Shown here: positions 8,222 through 51,517 of the stretch, piece by piece
Position numbering within the stretch: the stretch's first letter is position 1
How the letters are laid out: every line of letters begins with the position of its first letter
Assembly: GCA_002011035.2 (NCBI GenBank)
Contig: MTLY02000002.1
Coordinates: forward strand, 128,001 to 192,000
Direction: 5' to 3'
Length of the DNA stretch: 64,000 bases
DNA from: Candidatus Hecatella orcuttiae
GTDB lineage: Archaea; Thermoproteota; Bathyarchaeia; Hecatellales; Hecatellaceae
The notes under the pieces: generated by a model
Database searches by the model: none
What the model saw: only the letters and a program-made list of their open reading frames with translations
What the model was told of the DNA's origin: nothing
Program-made: the position numbers and the translations under genes

Positions 8222-8297
8222 GGGCCGGTGGTCTAGCGGCTATGATATCGCCTTTACGAGGCGATGGTCGCAGGTTCGAATCCTGCCCGGCCCACCA
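8222..8297 (+). tRNA. tRNA-Val(TAC)
   Basis: GGGCCGG/CCGGCCC acceptor stem, TCGCC-TTTACGA-GGCGA anticodon arm, GGTTCGAATCC T-arm, encoded CCA. Confidence 0.95.
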
Positions 8298-14124: not shown

Positions 14125-14201
14125 GGGCCGGTGGTCTAGTTGGCTATGACGGCGCCCTCACGCGGCGCAGGTCGCAGGTTCGAGTCCTGCCCGGCCCACC
14201 A
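14125..14201 (+). tRNA. tRNA-Val(CAC)
   Basis: Cloverleaf with GCGCC-CTCACGC-GGCGC anticodon arm, GGTTCGAGTCC, encoded CCA. Confidence 0.95.
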
Positions 14202-15996: not shown

Positions 15997-16074
15997 GCGG
16001 CCGTGGTCTAGCCTGGACTAGGACAGGGGCCCTCCAAGCCCCTAACCCGGGTTCGAATCCCGGCGGCCGCACCA
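15997..16074 (+). tRNA. tRNA-Gly(TCC)
   Basis: GCGGCCG/CGGCCGC acceptor stem, GGGGC-CCTCCAA-GCCCC anticodon arm, T-arm, encoded CCA. Confidence 0.92.
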
Positions 16075-41639: not shown

Positions 41640-41728
41640 AAGGGCGCCATTTTCTCGGGGAAAGGGAGAGAAGATTACTCTGGTTGTTGATAAGCCATCA
41701 GGGCTGAGGGTTTGGGATTCTTCGAAAG

Positions 41729-41813
41729 TGCGGGGGGAGGGATTTGAACCCTCGAACCCCTTCGGGACAGGATCCTGAATCCTGCGCCTTTGACCATGCT
41801 TGGCGACCCCCGC
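41729..41813 (-). tRNA. tRNA-Leu(CAG)
   Basis: GCGGGGG acceptor stem, CAGGA-TTCAGGA-TCCTG anticodon arm, long variable arm; CCA not encoded. Confidence 0.93.
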
Positions 41814-47061: not shown

Positions 47062-47514
47062 CTATATATTTACAGTCGCCCTTTTAATGTTTTCAACGTA
47101 GGCAGCCAGACCTTCTACGTCCTTGACATCCCCTGAAAGGAGGCCTTTCAGCTTCAGCCAAAAGGTGAGGTTGGGGGCTTTACCGTGATGTTCAAGGTAG
47201 TGGGTCATTTTCCCAGCCAGCTGAGTGCCTCTCCTGTCGAAGTCGGTGAGGATGATGAGCTCCCTTTCCATCTTCAAAAGTTCATGGAACACGTCGTAGA
47301 GGGGGATCCTCCGGGTTTTCACGGAGAAGATCTCCCCCTTCACCCCCAAACTTCGGAGGGCATGGACGTCCTTGGAGCCCTCAACCACGATGACGGCTCC
47401 CTCCCGGCTTTTATCCACTATTTTCTCCACTAAGACGGCTAATTTTTCGGCTTTTTCCTGAAGGGAGCTGCTTAAAGGCCTTTTTCCACTGTTTTTCCTG
47501 TCCAAGAGAACCAA
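47062..47514 (-). CDS. Small TOPRIM-domain protein
   Basis: VVEG.KD..AL and ILTDFDRRG. Confidence 0.88.
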   Translation of the reverse strand: MVLLDRKNSGKRPLSSSLQEKAEKLAVLVEKIVDKSREGAVIVVEGSKDVHALRSLGVKGEIFSVKTRRIPLYDVFHELLKMERELIILTDFDRRGTQLAGKMTHYLEHHGKAPNLTFWLKLKGLLSGDVKDVEGLAAYVENIKRATVNI

Positions 47515-47554
47515 CCTAGGCGGACGGGTGGGAGGATAGTCCCTCCCCTTGCTG

Positions 47555-48675
47555 TTATCTGAAGGCTTTCTCCAACTCCACCATTCTTTGAAGGAGGTCC
47601 TCCTTTCCTTTAAAATGTCTTCTGACAGGCTCTAGGATTTTGATGAGGGCTTCTGCAACCCCGTTCTTGAGGTCAAGGGGGTGAATCTTTCCCGCGGCGT
47701 AGAGGGCCTCCAGCTGAGGGTAGCCTTCCACGTCCACGGGGCCTCCGAATTTTTCCTTCCTTTCTAGGCGAAGAACCTTCTGCTTGGCAAAGACCACATA
47801 CCGGGCTATTTCCATGACAGGGTTACCGGCAGCCTGCTTGGGGGGGCAGTAGGCTTCCATGAGCTTGGCCCTTATGTCCTCCGGGGAGTCGTGGATGTAG
47901 ATGCAGCTTCTGGGGATGCTTTTCGACATCTTGGAGCTGATCTGGAGGTTTAACGCCTCATCCTCATCGTACACGCCGCCCATTCTGCTGGAGGGCCCGG
48001 CTAAGCTGGGAAGCAGATGGGTGTGAAGGCACACAGGCTTTTTCAAGTGCAGCTTCTCAGCCACATCCCTCGCCAGCATGTGGGCTTTCCGCTGGTCCAG
48101 TCCAGCGCAGGCGCAGTCCACACCTAGCTCGAAGATGTCAGCCACCTGCATGGAAGGATAGATCAAAGAAGCCGCGTCCACGTCCGCAGGGTTCAACGCT
48201 CTGCCCATGATGGGAAGACAGCGGATCACCCTAGAAAGAGTGGCTTTCTTGGCTACGCGGAGAACGTTCTCCCAGTAGCGTTCCCTAGCCACCAGCTCTG
48301 AAGCCCAGAGGAACCTAACCCGGCTGGGAGTTAGCCCCAAGGCTGCGAATCCTTCTTTCAAGTAGGCGCCGCAGAGGCGGATGTTCTCCATGACCCCTCC
48401 GAGTTTGTTGTTGATCCAAGCATGCCAGTCGGCTAGGAAGATGGTGAAGTCGAAGCCGGCCTCCACCATGTCCGCTATCTTCGCCCCGCAGAGGAAGCCT
48501 GTGCCCAAATGCATTAATCCGGGCGGGGCTGTCGCAGCCGCCGCTGTCCGGAAGGCTCGAACCCCCAGTAGGCTTTGGGATGCTTTTCAGCCTCCAGCAA
48601 CTGGCGGAGTTCGCTGCGGGTGACGATTTCCTCGAGGTCCTTTTCCACAAGCATCAGCTTTTCTTCAATATCCAC
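47555..48675 (-). CDS. tyrS: Tyrosyl-tRNA synthetase, interrupted (exon 1 about 48675-48546, exon 2 48516-47555)
   Basis: AYWGFEPSG | LMHLG HIGH region split across frames; YPSMQVADI, GLDQRKAH, KMSKS, HPLDLK. Confidence 0.93.
48517..48545 (-). other. Putative 29-nt bulge-helix-bulge mRNA intron in tyrS
   Basis: TT-CCGG-ACA-[GCGGCGGCTGCGACAGCCCCGC hairpin]-CCGG-ATT-AA; cutting after the second nt of each bulge gives TCC GGA CTA ATG CAT (SGLMH) in frame. Confidence 0.8.
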
Positions 48676-48884
48676 GGATCTCTCTCCCGGGTTCCTCTCA
48701 TCTCCATACTTCATGAAGAAGCCTAAAAATTAAGTTTATGGAGCCGCCGATAGGGATAGGCTTTAGATGAGGAAAACATTTCCGGTGGAAGTGCCGCGAA
48801 CGAGAATGATTGGAGAGCGATTGTGGGTAAGGTTAATAGGATCATGAGAAGATTTATGATGAAACACACTGGAGTTGAGAGCTA

Positions 48885-50048
48885 TTGAAAGCTCAAGTCG
48901 CAATAGTAGGAGCCGGCATGACCCAGTTCGGTAAATTGAAGGGAGAGATGAGGGAAATCCACGCGGAAGCGGTTAGGCTTACCTTAGAGGATACAAGCAT
49001 ATCAGCCAAGGACATAGACGCCATGTACGTGGGAACATGGACCCCTGACTTGTTTCTAAACCAGCTTTTCCCCGCACCGATGCTGGCGGACTCCTTAGGG
49101 CTGAACAACATACCGGTGAGCCGAGTGGAGGATGCATGCGCAACCGGCAGCGTAGCTTTCCGGCAGGCTGCGATGGCAGTGATGTCCGGTCTCCACCGCC
49201 TAGTGCTGGTAACCGGGGTTGAAGTCATGACCCAGCGTCCCACCCGGGAATGCGTCAAAACAATAGCCTACGCCTCCGACCGCCTCTGGGAGCAGCCTTT
49301 CGGGATAACTTTCCCCAGCAGCTACGCCCTCCTAGCTTCTAGGCATATGCACAAGTACGGCACAACCCCCGAGCAGCTGGCCGCTGTGTCGGTTAAAAAC
49401 CATCGATACTCTGCGAAGAATCCCAAAGCCCAGTATGGAGAGGTTACCTTAGAGCAGGTTCTCAGCTCCAAGATGGTAAGCTGGCCCCTCCGCCTTCTGG
49501 ACTGCTGCCCCATCTCCGACGGCGCCGCCGCCTTGGTGATAGCTAGGGCTGAGGAAGCGAAAAAGTATACAGACACGCCGGTGTATGTGCTGGGGAGCGG
49601 CCAGGCGAGGGCTTCGCTTTCCCTCCATGACAGGCCCAGCCTTACGTCGATACCCAGCACCAAGCAGGCTGCCGAAACAGCCTACCGCATGGCCGGAGTG
49701 GAAGCCGGGGATGTGGATGTGGCGGAAGTTCACGACTGCTTCACCATAGCGGAAATTCTGGCTGTGGAAGATTTGGGGTTCTTCAAGAAGGGCGAAGGGG
49801 GAAAGGCTGTGGAAGAAGGCTCAACGGAGATAGGGGGGAAGATACCTGTCAACGTGAGCGGAGGCCTCCTGGGCAAGGGCCACCCCATCGGCGCCACGGG
49901 GGTCGCTCAGATGGTGGAAATATTCGAACAGTTGAGGGGGGAAAGCGGAAGCAGACAGGTCCCCGGCGCGGAGATAGGGCTGACCCACAACGTGGGAGGA
50001 ACAGGGGGGGTGGTGACGGTTCACATCTTCAGCGTCAAGGGAGGCTAG
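48885..50048 (+). CDS. Archaeal thiolase (acetyl-CoA acetyltransferase)
   Basis: EDACATG, EVHDCF, KGHPIGATG, HNVGG. Confidence 0.92.
   Translation: MKAQVAIVGAGMTQFGKLKGEMREIHAEAVRLTLEDTSISAKDIDAMYVGTWTPDLFLNQLFPAPMLADSLGLNNIPVSRVEDACATGSVAFRQAAMAVMSGLHRLVLVTGVEVMTQRPTRECVKTIAYASDRLWEQPFGITFPSSYALLASRHMHKYGTTPEQLAAVSVKNHRYSAKNPKAQYGEVTLEQVLSSKMVSWPLRLLDCCPISDGAAALVIARAEEAKKYTDTPVYVLGSGQARASLSLHDRPSLTSIPSTKQAAETAYRMAGVEAGDVDVAEVHDCFTIAEILAVEDLGFFKKGEGGKAVEEGSTEIGGKIPVNVSGGLLGKGHPIGATGVAQMVEIFEQLRGESGSRQVPGAEIGLTHNVGGTGGVVTVHIFSVKGG

Positions 50049-51439: not shown

Positions 51440-51517
<78 letters not shown>

Follow-up and report, generated by a model that had tools for sequence, protein, structure and literature searches.

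The closest described counterpart of the element analysed here is the intron of crenarchaeal cbf5, whose pre-mRNA was reportedly shown in 2002, in work cited under the name of Watanabe, to carry a bulge-helix-bulge (BHB) intron. The element itself lies in tyrS, the gene for tyrosyl-tRNA synthetase (TyrRS), on the minus strand of a 64,000-nucleotide stretch of the genome of Candidatus Hecatella orcuttiae, a member of the Bathyarchaeia (contig MTLY02000002.1, positions 128,001 to 192,000, denoted here as the window), where 29 nt at positions 48517-48545 very probably represent a genuine archaeal BHB intron in the coding sequence of the organism's only tyrS. Both introns are short, lie inside a coding sequence, form a BHB where exon and intron meet and interrupt the codons of a catalytic motif in an enzyme that acts on RNA. 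The statements credited here and below to Yokobori 2009, Hirata 2019, Schwarz 2020 and the review PMC10485636 come from portions of those papers. According to Yokobori 2009 (PMC2738675), the cbf5 intron has a variable internal sequence and has been lost in particular lineages, and the tyrS intron likewise has a variable interior and has most likely been lost repeatedly. The same excerpt reports the cbf5 intron only from Desulfurococcales and Sulfolobales and places its gain in their ancestor. In contrast, the carriers of the tyrS intron belong to the Bathyarchaeia and Aenigmatarchaeota, and the host gene encodes an aminoacyl-tRNA synthetase. A two-subunit tRNA-splicing endonuclease has been linked with cbf5 splicing (PMC10485636; Yokobori 2009, PMC2738675), the hosts of the cbf5 intron having a hetero-oligomeric enzyme (PMC10485636; PMC2738675), and the genome to which the window belongs encodes two endonuclease paralogs. 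Whereas the splicing of cbf5 is experimentally supported (PMC10485636; PMC2738675), that of tyrS is predicted from the sequence.

The tyrS element can also be set beside the BHB introns of pre-tRNAs and pre-rRNAs, with which it shares the two 3-nt bulges, the 4-bp helix and, presumably, the processing enzymes. Its size falls within the 11-175 nt quoted for tRNA introns (Yokobori 2009, PMC2738675). Unlike the introns of pre-tRNAs, it resides in an mRNA, with no tRNA body to aid its recognition, and one strand of its central helix and both strands of its outer helix also encode protein; in these protein-coding strands, only synonymous positions are free to vary. A further relative is the BHB in the 5' untranslated region (5'-UTR) of Haloferax volcanii HVO_1309, which is also an mRNA substrate of the tRNA-splicing endonuclease (Schwarz 2020, PMC7714728). 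However, that motif lies in an untranslated leader, so that no frame is restored by its removal, and the enzyme of its host is of the alpha2 type (PMC10485636). The portion of Schwarz 2020 (PMC7714728) used here names cbf5 as the only additional BHB intron reported besides this 5'-UTR case, and the excerpt of the 2023 review (PMC10485636) counts two archaeal genes and expects more. A model-made note on the window, drawn from the letters alone and referred to here as the sequence-only reading, had known of no tyrS example, and full-text searches of the literature outside subscription journals brought up none either, for tyrS or for another aminoacyl-tRNA synthetase gene. In eukaryotes, the HAC1/XBP1 mRNAs also lose a short intron independently of the spliceosome, the exons being joined by an RtcB-type tRNA ligase, and the resulting change of frame decides which protein is made. 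There, the nuclease is IRE1 and not the tRNA endonuclease, the structure recognised is a different one, and the regulatory role is established.

In the window, tyrS consists of two minus-strand frames, broken between EPSG and LMHLG by the 29 nt. The first open reading frame (48514..48714, 66 aa) ends in ...KAYWGFEPSG, followed by 10 off-frame codons and a TAA, and the second (47555..48514, 319 aa) begins with MHLGTGF. The part encoded by exon 2 belongs to a tyrosine--tRNA ligase of the archaeal type; it matched the NCBIfam tyrosine--tRNA ligase model NF006330 with 374.9 bits (cut-off 220) over model positions 45-338 of 342, and the Pfam family tRNA-synt_1b with an E-value of 2.7e-34. The first 56 aa of exon 1 matched, by tblastn, the N-termini of uninterrupted TyrRS genes in relatives, and in these intact genes the exon-1 part is in frame with the C-terminal part, one codon apart. 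A search of Rfam gave no match within 47400-48900 at E-values up to 1.

Read in the sense direction from 48556 to 48511, the interrupted region has the layout GCCTT-CCGG-ACA-(22-nt hairpin)-CCGG-ATT-AATGC. Exon 1 (48546..48714) runs from the ATG at 48714 to C 48546, the first base of the junction Leu codon, and encodes M...YWGFEPSG. The predicted intron (48517..48545) begins with the third base of bulge 1, continues through the 22-nt hairpin and the central helix's 3' strand CCGG, and stops after the second base of bulge 2. Exon 2 (47555..48516) starts with TA at 48516-48515, which completes the Leu codon, and continues with MHLGTGF... to the stop codon. The central 4-bp helix is formed by CCGG at 48548..48551, that is, the last two bases of the Ser codon and the first two of the Gly codon, and by CCGG at 48519..48522. 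Bulge 1 is ACA (48545..48547), with the 5' cut predicted between 48546 and 48545, and bulge 2 is AUU (48516..48518), with the 3' cut predicted between 48517 and 48516. Inside lies the intronic hairpin h' (48523..48544), with 9 bp, one bulged C and a 3-nt loop (RNAfold, -14.1 kcal/mol); outside, the exonic helix h brings together GCCUU (48552..48556) and AAUGC (48511..48515), with 4 of 5 positions paired, U-A and U-A beside the bulge, then a C.U mismatch and then two more pairs. Two 3-nt bulges on opposite strands with a 4-bp helix between them are what defines a BHB (Hirata 2019, PMC6379350), and the closing intronic helix beside the bulge, of which at least 2 bp are expected, has the 9 bp just mentioned. 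In silico, the excision of 48545-48517 yields TCC GGA CTA ATG CAT, which reads SGLMH and has the same spacing as intronless homologues, EPSG-x-MHLG; the predicted spliced junction is ...CCGGAC joined to TAATGCAT, with CTA as the Leu codon. Most of this had been put forward in the sequence-only reading, and it was reproduced here: the motif is found exactly as proposed at 48556-48511 (4-bp CCGG/CCGG, bulges ACA/AUU, inner hairpin), the removal of 29 nt does restore the frame and SGLMH, and the stop it had expected about 10 codons after EPSG in the unspliced frame is the TAA described above. In this genome only, the palindromic CCGG of the central helix creates a CCGGA direct repeat at both intron borders (48517-48551, minus strand). 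Excision anywhere within this repeat would give the same protein, with TTA instead of CTA as the junction Leu codon, so that cDNA could tell the exact cut site.

The mechanism we propose would start with the transcription of tyrS as one pre-mRNA. The 4-bp central helix would then arise by pairing between the CCGG of the Ser-Gly codons and the CCGG at the insert's 3' end. Two 3-nt bulges would flank this helix, a stable intronic hairpin would close it on the inside, and a weak exonic helix would do so on the outside. The tRNA-splicing endonuclease would then cut each bulge between its second and third base. The same rule, already adopted in the sequence-only reading, is stated for cbf5, where cleavage takes place between the second and third bulge residues (Yokobori 2009, PMC2738675). 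In the last step RtcB would join the exons to give ...GGA CUA AUG..., with the junction after the C of the Leu codon, and hence EPSG-L-MHLG, while an unspliced mRNA would yield only a truncated peptide of 66 aa.

As for the enzymes required, two tRNA_int_endo proteins, of 184 and 189 aa, are encoded in the genome. The first one matched endonuclease chains of 180-186 aa (3p1z_B, 3ajv_B, 2cv8_A and 2zyz_B; E-values from 1e-46 to 5e-34), which we take to be crenarchaeal catalytic subunits. The second one, which resembles the structural half, was aligned with the fused-type model over its other half and gave weak alignments with beta-subunit models and with Sen54. The enzyme is probably a two-subunit, crenarchaeal-type (alpha-beta)2 endonuclease, as judged from these matches. 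A single RtcB was also found (E-value 1.6e-177), so that both components expected of a host of BHB introns, a splicing endonuclease and an RNA ligase, are encoded. Both (alpha-beta)2 and epsilon2 endonucleases cut relaxed motifs efficiently, and a specificity loop has been described for the crenarchaeal ones (Hirata 2019, PMC6379350).

The sequence-only reading had recommended confirming that the insert is present in reads and had named an intact second tyrS, together with decay of this copy, as fatal to its proposal. The insert was found unchanged in one contig from each of three sequencing runs belonging to three studies (309x, 74x and 13x), and these contigs span 48300-48760 with 0 differences and 0 gaps; a fourth run gave no contig over the locus. 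The three runs may include the assembly's own source, so their agreement establishes the insert as real DNA but not as shared between separate populations. A single tyrS is present in the genome (97% complete, 1.75 Mb, 3 contigs), the next-best match (E-value 3.2e-4, 33% identity) being a paralogous class-I synthetase. Both exons are under purifying selection: between carriers of the insert, and considering unsaturated pairs, the ratio of nonsynonymous to synonymous substitution rates (dN/dS) reached 0.12-0.22 over the final 45 codons of exon 1 and 0.06-0.12 over exon 2, and the exon-2 frame is open for 314-319 codons in 29 of 29 carriers.

Further evidence came from other genomes. An insert between EPSG (or ECSG) and the (L/M)-x-H motif was present in 12 of 30 relatives' loci, and in 18 of 110 loci (14 distinct sequences) after a scan of genome contigs; three of these 110 loci (L055, L058 and L094) were missed by the EPSG pattern and are uninterrupted by eye. 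A survey of the class, with tyrS in 373 of 401 genomes, provided 16 further candidates, chosen by a short open frame from the best 150 of 379 matches, and 14 of them had the insert. When 41 genomes related to the one carrier from Aenigmatarchaeota were examined, two of three additional candidates had it as well. Altogether, the inserts, of 20-53 nt, are carried by 29 distinct genomes, 26 from Bathyarchaeia and three from Aenigmatarchaeota. The representatives of more distant families that were met were all intronless. All 29 carriers have a common layout: the central helix joins four Ser-Gly codon bases to four bases close to the insert's 3' end, each bulge measures 3 nt and a hairpin lies inside. 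In all of them, a cut after the second base of each bulge restores the frame, giving EPSG-L-(M/V)H in Bathyarchaeia and EPSG-M-AH in Aenigmatarchaeota, and the restored junctions match what intronless kin encode. The length of the insert modulo 3 is 2, 0 and 1 in 14, 11 and 4 carriers, respectively, and read-through runs into a stop in every one of the 29, in 27 of them no further than two codons on. Bulge 1 is A-N-A and the third base of bulge 2 is U in every carrier. The Gly codon, whose third base is the first base of bulge 1, is under synonymous constraint, being GGA in 27 of 27 carriers versus 13 of 87 non-carriers.

The Aenigmatarchaeota carriers (L081, L132 and L133, from G401, G402 and G417, three related metagenome-assembled genomes of the DPANN group) have BHB introns of 20-21 nt at the same tyrS codon boundary as the bathyarchaeal ones. 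Full-length open tyrS frames were observed in the equally close Aenigmatarchaeota G408 and G421. In G401, a genome of about 0.5 Mb, one endonuclease match was found.

The pairing itself was examined in a MAFFT alignment of 27 distinct sequences, and the compensatory changes that the sequence-only reading had suggested looking for in same-site inserts of relatives were indeed present. In the central helix every cell is paired (100%), and two of its four pairs have changed on both sides; it occurs as CCGG/CCGG, CUGG/CCAG, GCGG/CCGC and GUGG/CCAU, and copies with the GCGG form have exchanged the Ser codon TCN for AGC. The inner helix, taken as its first 5 pairs, is paired in 97.8% of cells, with all five pairs changed on both sides. 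The covariation score was 0.405, compared to a mean of 0.216 after shuffling, and none of 500 shuffles reached a value as high. When the 3' partners were slid by 1-3 columns, the score fell to 0.06-0.16 and the proportion of paired cells dropped from 88.9% to 28-49%.

Several observations weigh against this explanation. The outer (exonic) helix is paired in only 71.1% of cells, with none of its five pairs changed on both sides, and many ECSG-type copies have a single pair before the mismatch. The sequence-only reading had described this helix in the window as short and imperfect; it is weak, and the full BHB is not the predicted minimum free energy (MFE) structure of the naked RNA. On the 46-nt core of the window RNA, it was 3.3 kcal/mol worse than the MFE structure; with flanks, it was 5-8 kcal/mol worse, with an ensemble probability of at most 0.003, and the fold of a 76-nt piece was also a different structure. 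Among the 27 carrier cores, the MFE structure holds the central helix and both bulges in just one, the free energy differences being 2.3-11.7 kcal/mol. In the window's copy, the exonic helix is all that the MFE structure lacks, the inner hairpin, the central helix and bulge 1 being retained. Thermodynamics was considered as support for the BHB and rejected, given that the BHB is not the MFE structure. In addition, the carriers are relatives of one another, and counts of genomes and cells overstate the number of independent events; the cleavage and ligation of the tyrS RNA we infer from DNA. Since the exonic helix is 71% paired and shows no compensatory change, the tyrS motif is best described as a relaxed BHB, in which a strong intronic half is combined with a weak exonic helix. 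For comparison, a strict hBHBh' motif needs an exonic helix h of at least 2 Watson-Crick pairs (Schwarz 2020, PMC7714728).

The sequence-only reading had recommended scanning the genome for further coding sequences interrupted in this way, and cbf5 is one. In a whole-genome scan, strict BHB motifs counted as hits when their removal made two long open frames into one. With bulges of 3/3 nt, 125 hits were obtained, versus 87, 109 and 114 in controls with wrong bulges, and a compact-hairpin criterion reduced them to 17, versus 9, 8 and 11 in the controls, so that the background was high. When the hits were ranked by hairpin energy per nucleotide, tyrS came first and cbf5 second, and of the 17 only these two gave a conserved protein motif that could be recognised over the junction; the remaining 15 were judged by eye from their translations. 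Such a scan misses introns with an inner part of 70 nt or more and relaxed motifs. A looser first scan, which gave 4,934 candidates, was discarded; its filter on read-through length missed cbf5. The intron of the organism's own cbf5 lies outside the window, on the plus strand of contig C3 at about 211066-211112 (about 1466-1512 of locus L115). This BHB intron is 20 nt long, and its textbook hBHBh' motif coincides exactly with the MFE fold; compared with this motif, the exonic helix of tyrS is much weaker. The cbf5 intron splits the codon for the catalytic Asp (GTL-D-PGV) after its first letter. The intron of Crenarchaeota cbf5 occupies the same codon position (Yokobori 2009, PMC2738675). Among 30 cbf5 loci of bathyarchaeal relatives, a same-site intron of 17-30 nt was present in 21 and three were intact, while the remaining six were left unclassified by a rule of 3 bp in the inner stem. 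In one relative (G020, contig C11, 292020-294353), the cbf5 match was split, the part for query 1-96 being separated by about 1.6 kb from that for query 96-246 within one open frame of 797 aa, which looks like an in-frame insertion such as an intein.

ARAGORN predicted 43 tRNA genes in the genome, 24 of them with an intron, although some of these introns are implausibly long (206-1558 nt). When the same cut rule was applied blindly to the whole genome, mature tRNAs that ARAGORN recognised were obtained at several loci, and tRNA-Asp was recognised only after in silico BHB splicing. ARAGORN found no tRNA-Tyr, either with or without the in silico splicing of 104,107 BHB candidates, and no tRNA for Trp or Lys in the genome. 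This picture suggests that the genome contains many non-canonical or multiple tRNA introns. A call of tRNA-Pyl (cta) at 349861-349931 of contig C1 is probably spurious. In the window itself, there are five intron-less tRNA genes, at 8222-8297 (Val-TAC), 14125-14201 (Val-CAC), 15997-16074 (Gly-TCC), 41728-41813 (Leu-CAG) and 51440-51517 (Ala-CGC). Judging from translations, tyrS is followed downstream by a small Toprim-like ORF and an archaeal-type glyceraldehyde-3-phosphate dehydrogenase gene, and the opposite strand has a thiolase-like gene upstream of it.

By itself, the window shows an essential gene with a frameshift whose BHB is not the MFE fold, as one would expect if the insert were a disruptive insertion in a pseudogene or were absent from the DNA. 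We give almost no credence to decay or to an assembly artefact, because the insert is unchanged in three independent contigs, no second tyrS was found in the genome, both exons are open in 29 genomes of two phyla with dN/dS values of 0.06-0.22, and the inserts always occupy the same codon boundary. An in-frame insertion or intein in tyrS was likewise rejected, as 18 of the 29 lengths are not multiples of three and all 11 that are contain an in-frame stop. It is very unlikely that the 66-aa N-terminal and the 319-aa C-terminal fragments are translated apart and assemble into an active TyrRS without splicing. Such a split protein would also predict purifying selection on both parts, ATG or GTG is the first codon of exon 2 in 26 of 26 bathyarchaeal carriers, and the three Aenigmatarchaeota carriers have an ATG just upstream, across bulge 2 and exon 2. 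However, that Met (or Val) is also present in intronless homologues and is therefore not a dedicated start codon, and the break would sit between EPSG and the HIGH-type motif of one nucleotide-binding fold. Furthermore, two separate polypeptides leave unexplained the invariant 4-bp/3-nt geometry, the compensatory changes in two helices, the fixed GGA codon and the fact that one cut rule restores a junction of homologue length in 29 of 29 carriers. Translational bypass is another means of crossing the insert. In T4 gene 60, it involves matched take-off and landing codons and a gap containing a hairpin, and in tyrS the ribosome would take off at GGA, skip the hairpin gap and land so as to continue with L-M-H. 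GGA directly precedes UAG in 16 of 29 carriers, with the hairpin starting there, and the window copy has a second GGA just before UUA AUG, so that a hop would give the same protein. Nevertheless, the landing codon equals the take-off codon in one of 29 carriers, the others having AGA (23), GCA (2) and AGU, AUA and GUA (one each); the gap varies from 20 to 53 nt, and neither the covarying central helix nor the second bulge has a role in hopping. We know of no archaeal example of bypass, and we consider it extremely unlikely here.

If the BHB intron is accepted, its history and a possible function have to be considered. A tree of TyrRS (117 rows, 27 of them carriers) was used for an unrooted count, which does not distinguish gain from loss. 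The carrier label requires at least eight changes on this tree, compared to a mean of 24.6 after shuffling, with none of 500 shuffles as low. The bathyarchaeal carriers fall in one clade of 65 rows, where they form seven coherent groups interleaved with intronless lineages, and a single clade of the 26 bathyarchaeal carriers was rejected (difference in log-likelihood, 140; p-AU 4e-7). The intron persists in seven family-level groups of Bathyarchaeia. In Aenigmatarchaeota, three of the 37 genomes that gave a match are carriers, and they are nested within intronless members of the phylum. The intron is absent from five genomes of the genus closest to the window's genome, an absence which, together with the pattern of repeated loss or gain, suggests that it is dispensable. 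These data are most simply read as the history of an old intron that was lost repeatedly and precisely in Bathyarchaeia, with a separate event to account for the carriers in Aenigmatarchaeota. As a refinement of the BHB intron, and not an alternative to it, one may propose that the intron is spliced and has been kept because it gates TyrRS synthesis by EndA and RtcB activity, with the coupling of aminoacylation capacity to tRNA processing that the sequence-only reading had suggested. This we regard as unlikely. The two mRNA introns found, in tyrS and cbf5, do affect genes for RNA-acting enzymes, in or beside the codons of catalytic motifs, the unspliced tyrS mRNA would be terminated early in 27 of 29 carriers, and the intron has persisted across those seven family-level groups. 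Against such a role stand the number of state changes and the rejection of a single carrier clade, the five genomes of one closely related genus that do without the intron and the fact that the early stops largely follow from the sequence of the bulge and stem. A broader proposal holds that Bathyarchaeia and some Aenigmatarchaeota run a small mRNA-splicing programme on the tRNA-splicing machinery, with introns placed in or next to catalytic-motif codons of TyrRS and Cbf5, enzymes acting on tRNA and rRNA, whose output would be gated by EndA/RtcB capacity in the manner of HAC1/XBP1, and that the shared tyrS boundary reflects site-directed gain (for example, reverse splicing at a BHB-prone mRNA site and copying back into DNA) and not shared ancestry; it is a speculative idea to which we attach a low probability. 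Most likely, the tyrS intron is an old passenger, inherited vertically and lost on repeated occasions, of which no more is required than to stay spliceable, and it is probably not a regulator.

For more than 20 years, cbf5 has been the sole archaeal coding sequence known to contain an intron of the tRNA type. The tyrS gene would be the second, doubling the number of host genes, and in this case the host gene is essential and its conserved intron is spread over two phyla, in Bathyarchaeia over at least seven groups of family level. The presence of a bathyarchaeal cbf5 intron at the crenarchaeal codon position, in turn, points to either an earlier origin of that intron or its recurrent gain. The tyrS motif offers a natural case in which to gauge how little exonic pairing suffices for the endonuclease in an mRNA. 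Gene callers will call such genes truncated or broken, with the consequent distortion of both the annotation and the marker-based completeness of uncultured archaea, and further cases would probably emerge if split essential genes were screened with BHB introns in mind.

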